Assembly (NCBI GenBank): GCA_965215195.1
Contig: CBDCDC010000002.1
Coordinates: 4,000,001-4,064,000, forward strand
Direction: 5' to 3'
DNA from: Candidatus Latescibacterota bacterium
GTDB lineage: Bacteria; Latescibacterota; UBA2968; UBA8231
DNA: 64,000 nt
Position numbers and translations under genes: made by a program. The notes below the pieces were generated by a model. The model did no database searches, was not told the DNA's origin, and was given only the letters and a program-made list of their open reading frames with translations. This document shows, piece after piece, positions 31,324-41,334 of this stretch. How positions within the stretch are numbered: the stretch's first letter is position 1; the number at the start of each line of letters is the position of its first letter.

Positions 31324-32856
31324 ATGAACCAACAATACCTATCTTTCATCGCGCATTGCGCCGTGGCTTGGTTCCTTTGCACAAGCCCCGTCTTGGCGCA
31401 AATAGATGTGGATGTTGTTTCCGCAAGCATCGTGCGGGTGCGCGCTTATGACGATCACAAAGTCGCGGTTGAAGGGAGCGGGTTCGTCGTCAATGAAAAG
31501 GGCTACGTGTTGACGAATGCCCATCTCCTAGACAAGGCAGAGGGCTTGACCGTTTTGTCCCTGAAGACTGGGGCCGAGGTCGTGGCGCAGCGGGTGTTTG
31601 CCCGTCGCGCCATGAACTTGGCCCTGTTGCACGTACAGGGCTTGAACTTGCCGCCCCTCAGCTTATCCGAGCAAGGAGCCGCTGTCGGCCGGGCCGTGCA
31701 GACGCTGCGGTTCGAGGCTGCGGGAGATGTTCGTCTCTCTCACGGGACGATTGGCACGTACCAAGACATCCGCGGCAAAAAAGCAAGCCGTCCGGTGGCC
31801 CACCTGCTCCAACACAATGCCTTGATAACGGCCAAATCCTTTGGCATGCCCCTGTTCAACGAATGCGGGGACGTCGTCGCCATCAACCTGCCCAATCCGG
31901 GCAGCGGCTCGTGGCCGTTTCGGAAAGTGAAACCGAGAGGAACCATTTTTGCCTTGCGCAGCGGCGACATAATAGCGGCGCTCAAAGACCGAGAAATCGC
32001 CCATACCGTGGTTGAAGCAGAATGCCTGAGTGCGGTTGAGCGCGCTGAACGCGATAGAAAAGCGGCCGCCGATAGCCTCAAGGTGGCTAAAGCAAAAGCC
32101 GACTCGGCAAGCAAAGCCGCAGAAAAGGCCAAGGCCAAAGAGAAGGTCGCTCGGCGGGCGGCAGAACGGGCGAAAGCGCGGGCCGATTCCGCAGAGAAAG
32201 TGACCGCCGATAGCCTGAAGATGGCGAAAGCGCGGGCCGATTCCGCGAGTAAGGCGGCCAAAGCCAAAGCCGACAGCCTCAAAGCAGCAGAAGTGCAGGC
32301 GCAAGCCAAAGCCGACAGCCTCAAAGCGGCCAAAGAAAAGGCCGCGCAGCGATTGCAGTGGGGCCTTGCTGCCGGGGCGGGACTGGTGCTGCTCGCCCTC
32401 CTCGGTTGGTGGCTTTCTTCGCGGCGGAAAAAGGAGCAATTACAGAGCGCTGAGTCCCGAGTGAGTGAAGCCGAACAAACGGCTGAAGCCGCGCGCCAAG
32501 CCGCGGCGAGCGCACCGCAGCCCGCGCCTTTCAGGTGTCTATTGGAAGGCCAAGATAGCACCGGCCGGCCATTCGCCTTGACCCTATCGGCCTTGGCCTT
32601 GGGGGATCGAACCGGTGTGACGCTCGGCAGAAGCCCGGCCAACGCCGAATTTATCATTGACCACGAACAAGTCTCCCGCGAACACGTCCGGCTCGCGTGT
32701 GCTGACGGCCAACTCTACGCAGAGGATTTGAATGCTCTGAATGGGACCAAGGTGAACGGCCGCCTGCTCAACCCCGGCGAACAGGTGCTGTTGCAAAACA
32801 ATGATCGGCTTGAGATCGGGCCGGTCGCTTTTGCCGTGCGTTTGGTGCAGGAGTGA
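31324..32856 (+). CDS. Exported trypsin-like domain (degenerate triad) - coiled coil - TM - FHA protein
   Basis: Signal peptide, GSGF, LTNAH; Asp site reads MNLALL and Ser site AKSFGMP; ADSLK repeats; FHA GRS..VSREH..DLNALNGT. Confidence 0.88.
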   Translation: MNQQYLSFIAHCAVAWFLCTSPVLAQIDVDVVSASIVRVRAYDDHKVAVEGSGFVVNEKGYVLTNAHLLDKAEGLTVLSLKTGAEVVAQRVFARRAMNLALLHVQGLNLPPLSLSEQGAAVGRAVQTLRFEAAGDVRLSHGTIGTYQDIRGKKASRPVAHLLQHNALITAKSFGMPLFNECGDVVAINLPNPGSGSWPFRKVKPRGTIFALRSGDIIAALKDREIAHTVVEAECLSAVERAERDRKAAADSLKVAKAKADSASKAAEKAKAKEKVARRAAERAKARADSAEKVTADSLKMAKARADSASKAAKAKADSLKAAEVQAQAKADSLKAAKEKAAQRLQWGLAAGAGLVLLALLGWWLSSRRKKEQLQSAESRVSEAEQTAEAARQAAASAPQPAPFRCLLEGQDSTGRPFALTLSALALGDRTGVTLGRSPANAEFIIDHEQVSREHVRLACADGQLYAEDLNALNGTKVNGRLLNPGEQVLLQNNDRLEIGPVAFAVRLVQE

Positions 32857-32859
32857 ACA

Positions 32860-34188
32860 TTGCACCGCTTCAGACGCTGGCATCGCGTCTTTTTTCTACT
32901 CGCGCTTCTGCTGCCGGGCCGCGCCGTTGCCGCGCCAGACTTTGACGCGCTTGAGCGGAGCGTGGTACGCATTGTAACCCAGACCAGCCAAGGACCTAAT
33001 GCGGGCACTGGATTCGCCATAAACGACCAAGGCTATATTGCGACCAATGCCCACGTCATCGCCCACGCCCACTCGATCCAAGCCATCCCAACCAACTCCA
33101 ACGCGCTATACGAGGTGGAAGTAATCGCCACGTCCCCAGAATTCGACCTCGCAATCGCCCATATCCCCGACATAACCCTGCCTCCGATTGCGCTGTCGCT
33201 CGCACCGGCCACAAAAGGCCAGAAGGTATGGTCCATAGGCTATCCCGGTGGGGCTGACCGCAACAGACCGGCGCACGATCCGACCGTGCAAGACGGCGTC
33301 ATTGGGCGGATTTTTTCGGGCGCGTGGCACGCGCAAGAACTCAGGATTATTCAGCACAATGCGCCGACCAATCCGGGCAACAGCGGCGGCCCCTTACTAG
33401 ATGATTGTAGCCGGGCCGTCGGCGTCAATACGCAGGCGTCGCTCGTGGTCATTATCAGTCCATCGAGTGGGGTGACGCGGGTGCCCCATGCGGCGGGCAT
33501 TTACTGGTCTTCGCATATCGAGGAGTTGACAACTCTGTTGGACGACCACGGCATTGCTTTTCAATCAGAGAGCGACGATTGTGTAGCGGCTGGCGGCACG
33601 GGAGGTTCTGGCACGGCGGAAAAGGCGCAGCGCGAGGCGGAGAAGGCGCGGCGCGAGGCCGAACAAGCGCGGGTGCAAGCCGAAGAAGCGAGCGATCAAT
33701 TTTTCATCTACCTACTCTTGTTGGGCGGTGTGGCTTTGGTCGCCTTGGTCGTTGCCTTAAAGAAGCCGCGCCAGTTCGCCCAGCAGACCTTGGCGAAGCC
33801 GCGCCAACTCGTCCAACAGATAAGTCGGCGCGTAGGGGTAGGGGCCGTTGCCAAAGGCCCAAGGCACGGCATCGTGCTAGCTGGTTTTGACGGTCGCGGC
33901 CACCGCGTCTGCATTGAGTTGTCGCCGGCCCGATTTGCTGGTCAACGCTTGGGGCTTTCGCTCGGCCGGCATCCCGAGTTGGTCGATGAAGTCGTCGCCG
34001 ATGGAAACGTATCCCGCCGGCATCTGCGCATTGTCGCCCAAGGCAATCGATTGTATGTCGAAGATTTGAACTCCAGCAATGGGACGTTTTTGAACGAGCA
34101 ACGCCTGTCGCCCTTTAAGCCGGCGCGATTGGAATATGGTGCCAAAGTCGCGCTGGGCGATTTGGTGCTCATGGCCTCCAAACTTTAG
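32860..34188 (+). CDS. Exported trypsin-like serine protease - TM - FHA protein
   Basis: GTGF, TNAHV, FDLA, PGNSGGPL intact; TM; FHA GRH..VSRRH..DLNSSNGT. Confidence 0.9.
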   Translation: MHRFRRWHRVFFLLALLLPGRAVAAPDFDALERSVVRIVTQTSQGPNAGTGFAINDQGYIATNAHVIAHAHSIQAIPTNSNALYEVEVIATSPEFDLAIAHIPDITLPPIALSLAPATKGQKVWSIGYPGGADRNRPAHDPTVQDGVIGRIFSGAWHAQELRIIQHNAPTNPGNSGGPLLDDCSRAVGVNTQASLVVIISPSSGVTRVPHAAGIYWSSHIEELTTLLDDHGIAFQSESDDCVAAGGTGGSGTAEKAQREAEKARREAEQARVQAEEASDQFFIYLLLLGGVALVALVVALKKPRQFAQQTLAKPRQLVQQISRRVGVGAVAKGPRHGIVLAGFDGRGHRVCIELSPARFAGQRLGLSLGRHPELVDEVVADGNVSRRHLRIVAQGNRLYVEDLNSSNGTFLNEQRLSPFKPARLEYGAKVALGDLVLMASKL

Positions 34189-40455: not shown

Positions 40456-40503
40456 TTACTAACTTTCTCGTTTTTTCTCTTTTTTTATAAGGAGCAATGA
40501 GCT

Positions 40504-41334
40504 ATGAAGTCTTTTGCTGTATGTCTGCTGGGGTTGGTCTCAGTGGGATATGTGCTGGCGACGTATCTGCTGGCGGTGAGTTGCGGCGTGGGGGGTTCGT
40601 CGCAGACCTTTGAGCTTCCGGGGGGTTCGTCGATGGATTTTGTGTGGATTGCGCCGGGGACGTTTATAATGGGTTCGCCGCCTTCGGAGTCGGGTCGTAA
40701 TGATGATGAAGGGCCGATTCATGAGGTGGAGATTAGTAAGGGGTTTTATTTAGGGAAGTATGAGGTTACTCAGGGTCAGTGGAATGCGGTGATGGGGGCG
40801 CGGCCGTGGTCTGGCAAGGACGATGTTCAGTCGAATCCATCTCATCCGGCGGTGTATATTTCTTGGCGCGATGTGCAGGCTTTCATAGAGGAGTTGAATT
40901 TTGCGGCGGGTGAGGTAGTGTATCGTTTGCCGAGTGAGGCGGAGTGGGAGTATGCGTGTCGAGCGGGGAGTACGACTCGTTGGTCGTTTGGGGATGAAGA
41001 GAGGCAACTGACGGATTATGCGTGGTATGATGCTAATGCTTGGGATGTGGGTGAGAAGTATGCTCATGCGGTAGGGCTGAAGCGTCCCAACCCTTGGGGT
41101 TTGTATGATATGCATGGGAATGTTTGGGAGTGGGTGCAGGATTGGTATGACTCGGATTATTATAATAGCTCACCTCGGGTTGACCCCCCGGGGCCTACAT
41201 CCGGCTCTAATCGCGTCGGCCGGGGCGGCGCCTTCAGCAATCTCGCCCAGTACGTGCGGTCGGCGGGTCGCGTCAACGACTCGCCCGACGGCCGCTACTT
41301 CGACGTTGGCGTGCGCCTTTTAAGGATTCGTTAA
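40504..41334 (+). CDS. Exported/lipoprotein FGE-type C-type lectin protein (probable DGR target)
   Basis: Hydrophobic N-terminus ending LAVSC; FIMGSP, RLPSEAEWEYACRAG, GLYDMHGNVWEW, RGGAF, GVRLLR. Confidence 0.9.
   Translation: MKSFAVCLLGLVSVGYVLATYLLAVSCGVGGSSQTFELPGGSSMDFVWIAPGTFIMGSPPSESGRNDDEGPIHEVEISKGFYLGKYEVTQGQWNAVMGARPWSGKDDVQSNPSHPAVYISWRDVQAFIEELNFAAGEVVYRLPSEAEWEYACRAGSTTRWSFGDEERQLTDYAWYDANAWDVGEKYAHAVGLKRPNPWGLYDMHGNVWEWVQDWYDSDYYNSSPRVDPPGPTSGSNRVGRGGAFSNLAQYVRSAGRVNDSPDGRYFDVGVRLLRIR

Follow-up and report, generated by a model that had tools for sequence, protein, structure and literature searches.

A 64,000-nt stretch of the genome of Candidatus Latescibacterota bacterium (assembly GCA_965215195.1, contig CBDCDC010000002.1, positions 4,000,001 to 4,064,000; hereafter the window, whose own numbering is used for all positions except those preceded by a locus name) harbours a cluster of ten open reading frames (ORFs), g1 to g10, all lying on the forward strand and spanning positions 31291-41334 (Table 1). 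In order, these genes encode two trypsin-fold proteins with FHA domains, a vWA (von Willebrand factor A) protein, an FHA protein, a MotA-like protein, a further FHA protein, a PP2C phosphatase, an ankyrin (Ank) protein, a kinase and an FGE-sulfatase protein. Gene identities were assigned by Pfam scans of the ORFs, likeness below threshold was read from NCBIfam, defence models were taken from PADLOC and membrane topology was derived from hydropathy. An original prediction, made from the nucleotide sequence alone, had described ten co-oriented genes with the first seven tightly packed, and this description is borne out: the spacing across g1-g7 ranges from -31 to +53 nt in ORF coordinates, and gaps of 33-84 nt separate the genes from g7 to g10. 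The domains it listed are likewise all present, but its gene order requires amendment, as an FHA gene (g4) separates the vWA and MotA-like genes. The start of g5 is set at the ATG at 35541, where a database protein (P0121, the window's own, 261 aa) is 100% identical to g5. Promoter and terminator predictions in the window were as frequent as chance alone would give (5 where 5.2 were expected, and 11 where 12.9 were), and an Rfam scan of the window returned a tRNA-Thr at 46096 and nothing else.

Table 1. Features of the window discussed in the text, with protein family labels in parentheses.
Feature	Position	Strand	Match and remarks
g1 (T1)	31291-32856	+	Pfam Trypsin_2 9.3e-17, FHA 1.8e-15; first ATG 31324
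g2 (T2)	32860-34188	+	Pfam Trypsin_2 6.6e-27, FHA 3.8e-16
g3 (V)	34201-35154	+	Pfam VWA_3 1.2e-7
g4 (F4)	35138-35539	+	Pfam FHA 9.4e-15; alternative ATG 35156
g5 (M)	35541-36326	+	Pfam MotA_ExbB 2.8e-10 (PF01618, above its cut-off); 261 aa; ORF opens 35514
g6 (F6)	36380-37021	+	Pfam FHA 2.5e-6
g7 (P)	36991-38130	+	Pfam PP2C_2 3.5e-11
g8	38215-38760	+	Pfam Ank 1.3e-13
g9 (K)	38794-40455	+	Pfam Pkinase 3.9e-37
g10	40504-41334	+	Pfam FGE-sulfatase 4.9e-51
Upstream paralogous input module	19406-23551	+	Ank 19406-20116, Ank 20137-21072, kinase-TM-FGE fusion 21380-23551 (Pfam; TM, transmembrane segment)
Coiled-coil and TM family	25951-26175, 26736-26972, 27144-27422	+	weak Pfam XhlA 7.9e-4
Coiled-coil and TM family	42375-42704, 42780-43055	-	weak Pfam XhlA 7.9e-4

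Conservation of the gene set across genomes

An alignment search for homologues of the MotA-like protein (M) over the genome contigs of a collection described as holding one genome each for 185,579 species yielded 560 pattern matches, 534 of which encode a relative. The best 80 of these 534 relatives were studied together with 10 kb flanks, counting genes on the same strand that lie no more than 8 kb from M, and the 61 loci whose flanks extend for 8 kb or more in both directions are referred to here as full-flank loci. Besides M itself, which as the query is found in 61/61 full-flank loci, the most constant member of the set is F6, its partner in 60/61 (78/80 of all loci), followed by a kinase in 59/61 (73/80), PP2C in 57/61 (72/80), V in 57/61 (67/80), trypsin-FHA genes in 55/61 (65/80; at least two copies in 33 of the full-flank loci) and F4 in 47/61 (61/80). 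The carriers comprise Latescibacterota, Gemmatimonadota, Gammaproteobacteria, a Rhodospirillales metagenome-assembled genome (MAG) of the Alphaproteobacteria, Acidobacteriota, Binatia, Rhodothermales and an Acidimicrobiaceae bin. Among the gammaproteobacterial ones are SAR86, Pseudohongiella, Halieaceae, Thiotrichaceae, Pseudomonas sp. WN033 and Halioxenophilus sp., and three carriers that are not marked as MAGs appear to be cultured: Pseudomonas sp. WN033 (L079), Halioxenophilus sp. WMMB6 (L073) and Gammaproteobacteria bacterium LSUCC0112 (L036). Conservation in other genomes, which the original prediction had named as the test of its gene set, is thus what the survey found, with the set recurring in 80 loci of Latescibacterota, Pseudomonadota, Acidobacteriota, Binatota, Rhodothermota and others. 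The order typical of the Latescibacterota is T-T-V-F4-M-F6-P-K, and many gammaproteobacterial and acidobacterial loci read F4-M-F6-P-T-T-V-K instead; because gene content is conserved while gene order is rearranged, the arrangement argues for functional linkage. The gene set is, in short, more than a chance neighbourhood.

A tree of M largely follows phylum labels, with 9 label changes as opposed to 37.6 in shuffles, and the M of the window nests among those of the Latescibacterota; some cross-phylum nesting in the same tree may reflect transfer or mis-binning. Two loci each are found on three contigs, and the 4.86 Mb contig of the window also carries a V paralogue of 92% identity (P0003), which implies a second copy. 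Only two of the 80 loci (L039 and L040) have two full-length V ORFs, the split V ORFs of L008 and L019 looking like breaks. Flanking genes differ between loci and are mostly housekeeping or unrelated genes, and no further recurrent family was detected among 30 ORFs flanking seven diverse loci. Single loci present features of their own, such as a vWA+FHA fusion near the Parabeggiatoa locus (L057:2381-3715), a 533-aa PPC-domain protein within the LSUCC0112 cluster (L036:15110-16711), and Schlafen/AlbA_2, AAA-ATPase/PD-(D/E)XK, AbiEi and Xre-MbcA genes in the flanks of L051 and L068.

Motor pair, phospho-switch and receptor inputs

The g5 product belongs to the MotA/TolQ/ExbB family as one of its distant members. 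Its AlphaFold2 (AF2) model, with a mean pLDDT (predicted local distance difference test) score of 82.1, displays long helices as in TolQ-like proteins, and its hydropathy profile has three peaks. Foldseek places TolQ (9avi; E 5.9e-3, TM-score 0.59) first, followed by PomA, ExbB, MotA and ZorA, and the ZorAB structure 8vvn is also present among its matches; the top matches have a probability of 1.00, yet their E-values are weak (from 5.9e-3) and their TM-scores lie between 0.5 and 0.59. A search of the Protein Data Bank with a g5 profile of 14 homologues returned TolQ as its sole match (E 0.57), and the PADLOC model for ZorA2 is weakly matched (1.4e-5). Seven residues (P174, G177, F178, G180, T181, T217 and T218) and the C-terminal pattern GQY..D.L.NRLY are invariant in 74 M sequences, and these invariant features include a P-x-x-G-F-x-G-T motif and the pore-lining Thr217/Thr218 of the last helix. 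The presumed role of g5 is that of the pentameric outer part of a 5:2 motor.

The protein encoded by g3 begins with MKKRSRELNIFSMSALDLFASALGAFILI, the segment that holds an Asp-bearing helix, and contains NIFSMSALDLFASALGAFILI, in which Asp17 lies, followed by Ala/Glu/Lys-rich heptad-like repeats and then by FVIDMSGS, a metal-ion-dependent adhesion site (MIDAS) motif. Its layout is that of a short cytoplasmic N-terminus, a single TM helix with Asp17 embedded in SALDLFAS, some 95 residues of helix and a periplasmic vWA domain; in the AF2 model (mean pLDDT 72), residues 13-32, 44-91 and 98-137 are helical and residues 150-306 fold into an alpha/beta domain. Foldseek identifies the head as a vWA fold (ITIH1 at 1.4e-7, the CLCA1 VWA domain, integrin I-domains and BatB), and residues 5-121 weakly match the PADLOC model for ZorB (2.5e-4). 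With Pfam, neither an ExbD/TolR periplasmic domain nor an OmpA-like peptidoglycan-binding domain was detected in g3, which matched vWA and coiled-coil noise only, and no member of the ExbD/TolR/MotB family was found in the ten genes. The motif [AST][ALIV]DL[FL]AS is present in 66/67 V orthologue ORFs and constitutes the best-conserved V segment across phyla, and a MIDAS-like motif (DMSGS in g3) is kept in 50/67. Since the head differs among orthologues, the constant part of V is the Asp helix with its stalk, and the head is variable. The near-invariance of an ExbD/TolR-like Asp helix, together with the absence of a TolR, ExbD or MotB gene from the cluster, makes g3 most likely the inner dimer of a proton-driven 5:2 motor. 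The pairing of the MotA-like gene with an Asp-bearing, single-TM, coiled-coil protein with a MIDAS vWA domain, as the original prediction had it, agrees with the motifs and folds of g5 and g3, and from these we infer a 5:2 assembly of the two. Prediction of a complex of g5 with g4 gave a score of 0.00 in both runs and is uninformative either way.

Database proteins that join M to other domains were also considered. A 384-aa protein flagged as FHA + MotA (P0138) was rejected as a natural fusion, being a frameshift read-through whose FHA part is unrelated after about 35 residues. A 464-aa protein (P0241) is an in-frame M-F6 read-through represented by a single sequence, which makes it weak as Rosetta-stone evidence of fusion. 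A 548-aa protein (P0243, two member sequences) fuses a distant MotA-like domain (31% identity) to a TM segment and an FGE-sulfatase domain with an end that resembles a variable region.

The two trypsin-fold proteins differ in their catalytic residues. The g1 product comprises a signal or TM segment, a periplasmic trypsin fold, an Ala/Lys-rich coiled coil, a TM segment and a cytoplasmic FHA domain, with hydrophobic segments at residues 17-35 and 355-373. Its catalytic Asp column is occupied by Asn (MNLALL) and its Ser column is ambiguous by one position, and the His-Asp-Ser triad is kept in 0/55 aligned rows of the T1 family, pointing to g1 as a pseudoprotease. In g2, a signal peptide, a periplasmic trypsin-like domain, a TM segment (residues 282-300) and a cytoplasmic FHA domain follow one another; the triad motifs are TNAHV, FDLAI and GNSGGP, the triad is kept in 47/49 rows of the T2 family, and the best NCBIfam match is a MarP-family protease (6.3e-21, below the cut-off), so that g2 is predicted to be an active-type trypsin-like serine protease. 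Periplasmic proteases as an output, as in the original prediction, become less probable with the g1 type being inactive. In 96/102 T1/T2 ORFs the protease domain is separated from the FHA domain by a TM segment, which would place the former outside and the latter inside. Exactly one active and one inactive copy are found in 38/40 loci with several trypsin-FHA genes, and the 21 loci with a single copy divide into 14 of the inactive and 7 of the active type; given that the inactive type outnumbers the active one in these loci, the pseudoprotease would be at least as central as the protease.

All four FHA proteins retain the elements of phosphothreonine (pThr) recognition. The pThr-binding GR...S-x-x-H motif is kept in 49/54 T1, 45/48 T2, 60/61 F4 and 75/77 F6 ORFs. 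In F4, a soluble protein with no TM segment in 59/60 ORFs, G18, R19 and H36 are invariant, S33 and R34 nearly so, and the C-terminal motif RR[ND]PxTGEI[IV] has its TGE in 58/61. The g6 protein, also soluble, opens with the conserved motif MPVYRxPDGxI[IV]EE[KR]T and ends in an FHA domain, the two being joined by a disordered linker; it resembles FhaB/FipA in NCBIfam at 3.9e-12, below the cut-off. The end of g4 (RRNxxTGEII, residues ~118-130; 35489-35527) resembles the start of g6 (YRGPDGKVIEE, residues 1-16; 36380-36427), and the two motifs, each conserved across phyla, may represent a single docking motif used twice, perhaps for the same site. The phosphatase signature DGxGG is kept in 77/78 PP2C orthologues; g7 resembles Stp1/IreP (NCBIfam, 2.5e-40, below the cut-off) and ends in a TM anchor (hydrophobic segment 289-307), a comparable segment being present in 36/78 orthologues. 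The kinase g9 has the catalytic motifs HRDIKPGN and DFG and resembles PknB-type kinases (NCBIfam, 2e-42, again below the cut-off). Its C-terminal part bears five hydrophobic segments (residues 366-537) in a membrane domain (39813-40455, residues 340-553) that weakly matches DUF4231 (0.0091), gave only unnamed clusters (scores <=0.89) and a weak DUF4328 lead (0.80) in an Atlas search, and is kept in close relatives (e.g. L003:12631-14340). The co-occurrence of four FHA proteins, a PP2C and a kinase, already pointed out in the original prediction, is hence accompanied by intact pThr-binding, DGxGG and kinase motifs.

In relatives, the kinases come with a diverse set of additional domains. Scanned by Pfam in 69 loci (a seventieth was set aside for a coordinate error), keeping the best five families for proteins with multiple matches, the kinase nearest to the motor gene carries Ank repeats in 17 cases, FGE-sulfatase in 15 and Sel1 in 9; six further kinases have rarer domains (PEGA in 2; PDZ, PG_binding_1, YARHG and DUF6804 in one each), and no additional domain was recognised in 22. 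Eight of nine kinases sampled for hydropathy, seven from relatives plus the fusion encoded upstream in the window, have an ectodomain and a TM segment at about residues 320-365 that separates it from the kinase domain; the ninth (L003) has five hydrophobic segments as in g9. The ectodomain-bearing kinases are accordingly best described as predicted receptor kinases with periplasmic ectodomains. In the cluster of the window the same pieces are kept as separate genes: a TM segment with Ank repeats in g8 (TM at residues 19-37), the kinase in g9 and the FGE-sulfatase domain in g10, which has an N-terminal TM segment or signal and is predicted to be a secreted or lipid-anchored protein of C-type-lectin fold. 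To all appearances, g8 looks like a kinase-less copy of the TM and ectodomain part of the kinase-Ank fusions, that is, an accessory input and not a core component.

Repeats in the DNA link these genes to the paralogous module upstream. The TM-coding segment of g8 (38275-38359) is 85% identical to positions 22418-22502 of the upstream kinase-FGE gene (repeat family D13) and recurs in an Ank-only gene (20155-20239), the three copies being 60-85% identical. The presence of the same TM segment in g8, in the second upstream Ank gene and in the fusion suggests that ectodomain cassettes could be exchanged at the TM segment, onto and off the kinase, and kinase-less cassettes of this kind may be what g8 and the Ank genes upstream represent. 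More generally, repeat families D5-D7, D10 and D13-D15 tie the upstream module to 38275-41355 at 66-90% identity. Just after its TM segment, the fusion gene contains six copies of a 60-nt tandem repeat (22451-22870; up to 95% identical) that encode a linker of 20-residue repeats.

At their 3' ends, g10 and the upstream fusion gene share 82% identity across 198 nt, and the codons that differ are clustered. When the last 46 codons of g10 (41197-41334) are compared with the variable-region-like end of its paralogue (23414-23551), 28 differences fall on codon positions 1-2 and 5 on position 3, as against 15 and 11 in the preceding 49 codons. Such a pattern is as expected for two variable regions derived from the AAC-rich template of a diversity-generating retroelement (DGR; PMC5758913). 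The clearest cases come from relatives. In locus L043 the order runs from an FGE target through a reverse transcriptase (RVT_1, 1e-14), a template repeat (about 2634-2754), PP2C, T1, T2, V, F4, M and F6 to a pair of kinase-FGE fusions with variable regions; adenines account for 19/20, 16/19 and 18/34 of the mismatches and gaps between the template and the three variable regions. In L027, a template repeat lies directly 3' of a kinase-FGE gene, with 17/21 mismatches at adenines. Neither template repeat has a BLAST match in the window. On the grounds of the complete DGR in L043 and the template repeat in L027, hypervariable receptor kinases appear to be a genuine, if not universal, input of the system. 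The variable receptors of the original prediction have thereby found a counterpart, the kinase-FGE architecture being that of the nearest kinase in 15/69 loci and the target of a complete DGR in L043.

Genomic setting of the cluster

The cluster lies in a stretch of low GC content (0.45-0.57, as opposed to ~0.62 outside) and is flanked by inverted repeats at 26978-27335 and 42900-43377, in which 136 nt are 95% and 166 nt are 89% complementary. These repeats bracket ~16 kb comprising the cluster and five small membrane-protein genes, and the bracketed stretch could be an invertible or recombined island; the setting is compatible with an accessory island and does not imply a defence role. The repeat arms hold a palindromic element (27008-27054 and 43301-43347), and a 68-nt repeat at 21128-21195 that overlaps it matches 27031-27098 (90%) and 43257-43324 (91% complementary). 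Tandem genes for small coiled-coil proteins with a TM segment and the motif RLDSIERAI border the island at either end, the two sets being oppositely oriented, and the weak match to XhlA is the only one that Pfam gives for this family.

Other genes of the window lie nearby. On the reverse strand at 24027-25678, an AAA_15/AAA_21 (AbiEii/OLD-like) ATPase gene is apparently broken, with the P-loop N-terminus in 25226-25678 and the remainder in the overlapping 24027-25550, in another frame. Upstream of g1 and inside the island, 28042-30889 encodes TM2-domain, DUF805 and bPH_1 proteins and a 238-aa multi-TM ORF; the 80-locus map covered relatives of the ten cluster proteins only and leaves the TM2/DUF805/bPH_1 genes aside. 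Repeats at 30708-30845, which we take to be MORN/YwqK-like, are split over two frames and probably belong to a broken gene. Farther downstream, 46435-48576 and 56017-62817 (reverse strand) encode a DUF6785/DUF6784 protein and several large FlgD_ig/CHU_C proteins, whose C-termini resemble type IX secretion signals and which are unrelated to the cluster.

Proposed machine, alternatives and known systems

Building on the observed domain identities, topology, catalytic and binding motifs and gene-set conservation, we propose that the cluster encodes a single inner-membrane machine, driven by the proton-motive force (pmf), gated by receptor kinases and composed of three modules, a reading to which we would assign a probability of roughly 0.45. 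In the first module, a g5 pentamer and a dimer of the g3 Asp helix would form a pmf-driven 5:2 motor, in which the coiled-coil stalk of g3 would bear the vWA head, or some other head domain in certain relatives, into the periplasm. The second would be a reversible pThr switch made up of membrane receptor kinases, PP2C and four cytoplasmic FHA readers, two of them tails of the trypsin-fold proteins and two of them small soluble proteins whose genes flank that of the motor. The third module would consist of the interchangeable periplasmic inputs of the kinases, be they ankyrin, Sel1 or an FGE/C-type-lectin fold, the latter hypervaried by DGRs in relatives. Binding of a ligand to the kinase ectodomain would lead to Thr phosphorylation of the kinase itself, of system components or of both; the FHA domains would then dock on pThr, so that the motor, along with the trypsin-fold proteins, is assembled or un-clutched; the energised vWA arm and its trypsin-fold partners would pull, remodel or cleave a periplasmic or envelope ligand; and PP2C would finally reset the system. 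Which cluster proteins are phosphorylated, in which direction the signal flows and what the output is are points that we infer. Presumptive control of the motor or the proteases by pThr and a role in conflict or host interaction, both advanced in the original prediction, are likewise maintained here as hypotheses.

Several observations weigh against this proposal. What ties the modules together is gene context, and the survey behind that context covers the best 80 of the 534 relatives, with locus ORFs obtained from a simple script and classed by their best phmmer match (E <=1e-5) to the ten window proteins. F4, one of the proposed readers, is missing in 14/61 full-flank loci, about a quarter. 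Among the 17 V orthologues devoid of the MIDAS-like motif, eight were tested and Pfam recognised a vWA domain in 0/8, as opposed to 6/6 of the other V proteins tested. Protease activity, in turn, cannot be the universal output on this evidence, because 14 of the 21 single-copy loci carry the inactive type only. The flanks of the seven loci inspected disclosed no conserved outer-membrane, nuclease or transcription-factor partner, and the trans-envelope character assumed in the original prediction is kept as a hypothesis only. Concerning DGRs, no reverse transcriptase was found by Pfam in the 40 flanking window ORFs scanned, and the conserved-base pattern of the FGE gene ends matched just the two copies described, with no template-like third copy in the window; the original view of g10 as a DGR target stands, then, for its variable-region-like end and not for the template repeat or reverse transcriptase that would accompany it.

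The same parts could conceivably work in the opposite direction, with the motor, its vWA arm and the trypsin-fold proteins sensing envelope perturbation or a ligand mechanically, as proposed for ZorAB, and with the kinase, PP2C and FHA proteins passing this state on into the cell or to the membrane domains of the kinases. The weak PADLOC matches of M to ZorA2 (1.4e-5) and of V to ZorB (2.5e-4) and the ZorAB structure 8vvn among the Foldseek matches of M are in line with this possibility; loci with just a pseudoprotease would suit binding or sensing better than an effector role, and kinases of the g9 type end in a five-helix membrane domain and not in a ligand-binding ectodomain. Most kinases have, on the other hand, a receptor topology with protein-binding or lectin-fold ectodomains, some of them varied by DGRs, which points to them as the input, and no conserved cytoplasmic effector (nuclease or transcription factor) was found in the cluster or in the flanks of the seven loci to receive such a signal. 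We view this reversal as unlikely. Somewhat less likely still is an anti-phage or anti-invader system, a membrane-acting relative of TerY-P or Zorya in which the kinase would open or mis-engage a proton channel or free a protease. The cluster has the domain types of the vWA, PP2C and Ser/Thr kinase trio that defines TerY-P, a stand-alone anti-phage system (PMC11090510), and the low GC content, the long inverted repeats, the adjoining broken AAA_15/AAA_21 ATPase gene, the toxin-antitoxin or Schlafen/PD-(D/E)XK genes near some relatives, the three contigs with two loci each and the DGR-varied receptors would all speak for such a system. Against it, PADLOC gave no system-level match, V and P had no TerY-P match at E <=0.01, and the kinase matched generic kinase models among the 25 of 36 matches listed; a periplasmic vWA domain and receptor-type kinases depart from TerY-P as described in PMC11090510, flanking genes are mostly housekeeping or unrelated, and the agreement of the M tree with phylum labels suggests long residence over rapid island turnover.

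Another view of the proposed machine would see it as a device for periplasmic surveillance, in which receptor kinases with hypervariable (DGR-diversified) lectin-fold ectodomains or with repeat ectodomains sense foreign molecules in the periplasm (these would be phage parts, bacteriocins, injected effectors or host factors), pThr-FHA recognition engages the motor, and the vWA and trypsin-fold partners seize, unfold or cut the intruder. We hold this specific role to be doubtful; were it true, it would amount to an envelope immunity with diversifiable receptors, powered by the pmf in a compartment without ATP. Slightly more improbable is a housekeeping regulator of envelope growth, division or homeostasis, modelled on the actinobacterial FhaA/FhaB-PstP-PknA/PknB cluster or on Tol-Pal, in which the motor and protease would remodel peptidoglycan or the outer membrane. 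The likeness of F6 to FhaB/FipA, of g7 to Stp1, of g9 to PknB and of g2 to MarP speaks for such a regulator, albeit always below family cut-offs, as does the PG_binding_1 domain on two kinases; yet Pfam finds no RodA, PBP, TolB or Pal gene in the cluster, the 534 relatives among 185,579 species show that the system is not universal, and several copies per genome and variable input domains occur. That the genes sit next to each other without sharing any function is scarcely credible: each of their domains is common in bacteria on its own, but seven families co-occur on one strand in 47-60 of the 61 full-flank loci, in several phyla and in rearranged order.

Ion-driven 5:2 motors power flagella, Ton/Tol transport, gliding and Zorya defence, and the regulation of their engagement is a topic of current interest. 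The cluster proposed here as a kinase-gated machine would be the first 5:2 motor family with a dedicated kinase/phosphatase/FHA switch, and one with exchangeable receptor inputs that are diversified by DGRs in some genomes. It would also bring together bacterial Hanks-kinase signalling, rotary force transducers and targeted hypermutation, fields that usually stand apart, and it offers a candidate answer to what cellular DGR-varied kinase receptors signal to.

The control of a membrane machine by a Hanks kinase, a PP2C phosphatase and FHA proteins has precedents in the PpkA/PppA/Fha1 pathway of T6SS (type VI secretion system) and in the actinobacterial FhaA/FhaB-PstP-PknA/B cluster. No T6SS core, RodA or PBP genes were found in Pfam scans of 50 window ORFs, TagH-type FHA similarity in NCBIfam was far below that family's cut-off, and the remark in the original prediction that T6SS core genes are lacking is confirmed to that extent. 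In Zorya, ZorA is extended by a long tail in the cytoplasm, ZorB carries a domain that binds peptidoglycan, and the system is completed by ZorC/ZorD or by other genes specific to the type. ZorAB resembles the pair described here in being a non-flagellar, MotAB-like 5:2 unit of an accessory system, but M, with its 261 aa, is devoid of the long ZorA tail, and V bears a coiled coil and a vWA domain instead of an OmpA-type peptidoglycan-binding domain (Pfam). Matches to Zorya proteins are limited to the weak ones to ZorA2 and ZorB, with no ZorC/ZorD-like genes, and a kinase, PP2C and FHA proteins are added.

The closest precedent for the motor itself is a TolQ-like pentamer with a trans-pore-helix vWA (TPH-vWA) partner, for which force transduction by the vWA arm has been proposed (PMC12204202; Mol Biol Evol 2025). 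In that work, the pairing is put forward for TolQ-like genes with neighbours encoding TM-tethered vWA proteins and without tolR/exbD, mostly as heterologous vWA pairs and from Proteobacteria and Verrucomicrobia. The likeness of the present pair to this family, which was seeded with Idiomarina, is by description and fold only: both combine a TolQ-like gene with a TM-tethered vWA gene, a conserved Asp in the helix and a channel Thr, and, with g3 and g5 lying one gene apart, no ExbD, TolR or MotB is found in the ten genes either, whereas a single V gene is present here. The main text of PMC12204202 contains none of the terms kinase, phosphatase, phospho, protease, trypsin or coiled, and FHA appears in it just as part of FhaC.

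The switch, in turn, recalls the TerY-P triad of a TerY-like vWA protein, a PP2C and a Ser/Thr kinase fused C-terminally to a Zn ribbon or an OB fold (PMC11090510), as well as a Deinococcus operon of vWA, Ser/Thr kinase, FHA and PP2C genes (bioRxiv 10.64898/2026.01.23.701218). The domain types of these phospho-switches, vWA, PP2C and Hanks kinase, with FHA in the Deinococcus operon, are encoded together in the cluster too. Relative to TerY-P as described, the vWA domain here forms the periplasmic head of a membrane protein whose helix is ExbD-like, the C-terminal part of g9 consists of five TM helices and that of the kinases of relatives of a TM segment with Ank, FGE or Sel1 domains instead of a Zn ribbon or OB fold, and MotA-like and trypsin-fold genes are added. 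The Agl-Glt machinery of Myxococcus, for which a published model has the FHA domain of GltG at the cytoplasmic side of the pentamer formed by TolQ-like AglR (PMC11761067), is alike in combining a TolQR-type motor with an inner-membrane FHA protein. Its vWA protein, CglB, is described there as a far-end adhesin, whereas the vWA domain of the cluster resides on the motor's own inner subunit; its separate TolR-like AglQ/AglS, outer-membrane barrels and many Glt proteins have no counterpart in the cluster, and the system as described there comes without a kinase/PP2C pair.

With regard to the receptors, FGE-sulfatase proteins with a C-terminal variable region constitute the largest class of DGR targets (71/372) in a DGR survey (PMC5758913), where a kinase domain appears in 1 of 13 domain compositions of FGE targets and the mutated sites are adenines at codon positions 1-2. 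The kinase-FGE receptors studied here resemble those targets in their FGE fold and C-terminal variable region and differ from them in lying inside or beside a motor/FHA/PP2C cluster (L043 and L027); the window itself shares with DGR targets the variable-region-like pattern only. The original prediction could assign the cluster to no named pathway. This holds for the cluster as a whole, which, as far as our searches reach (literature outside subscription journals and supplements), is undescribed, but not for the TolQ-like/vWA pairing, which already figures in PMC12204202. The 5:2 motor, the Hanks kinase/PP2C/FHA switch and the DGR-varied lectin-fold receptor are thus all known, and what is new is their combination.

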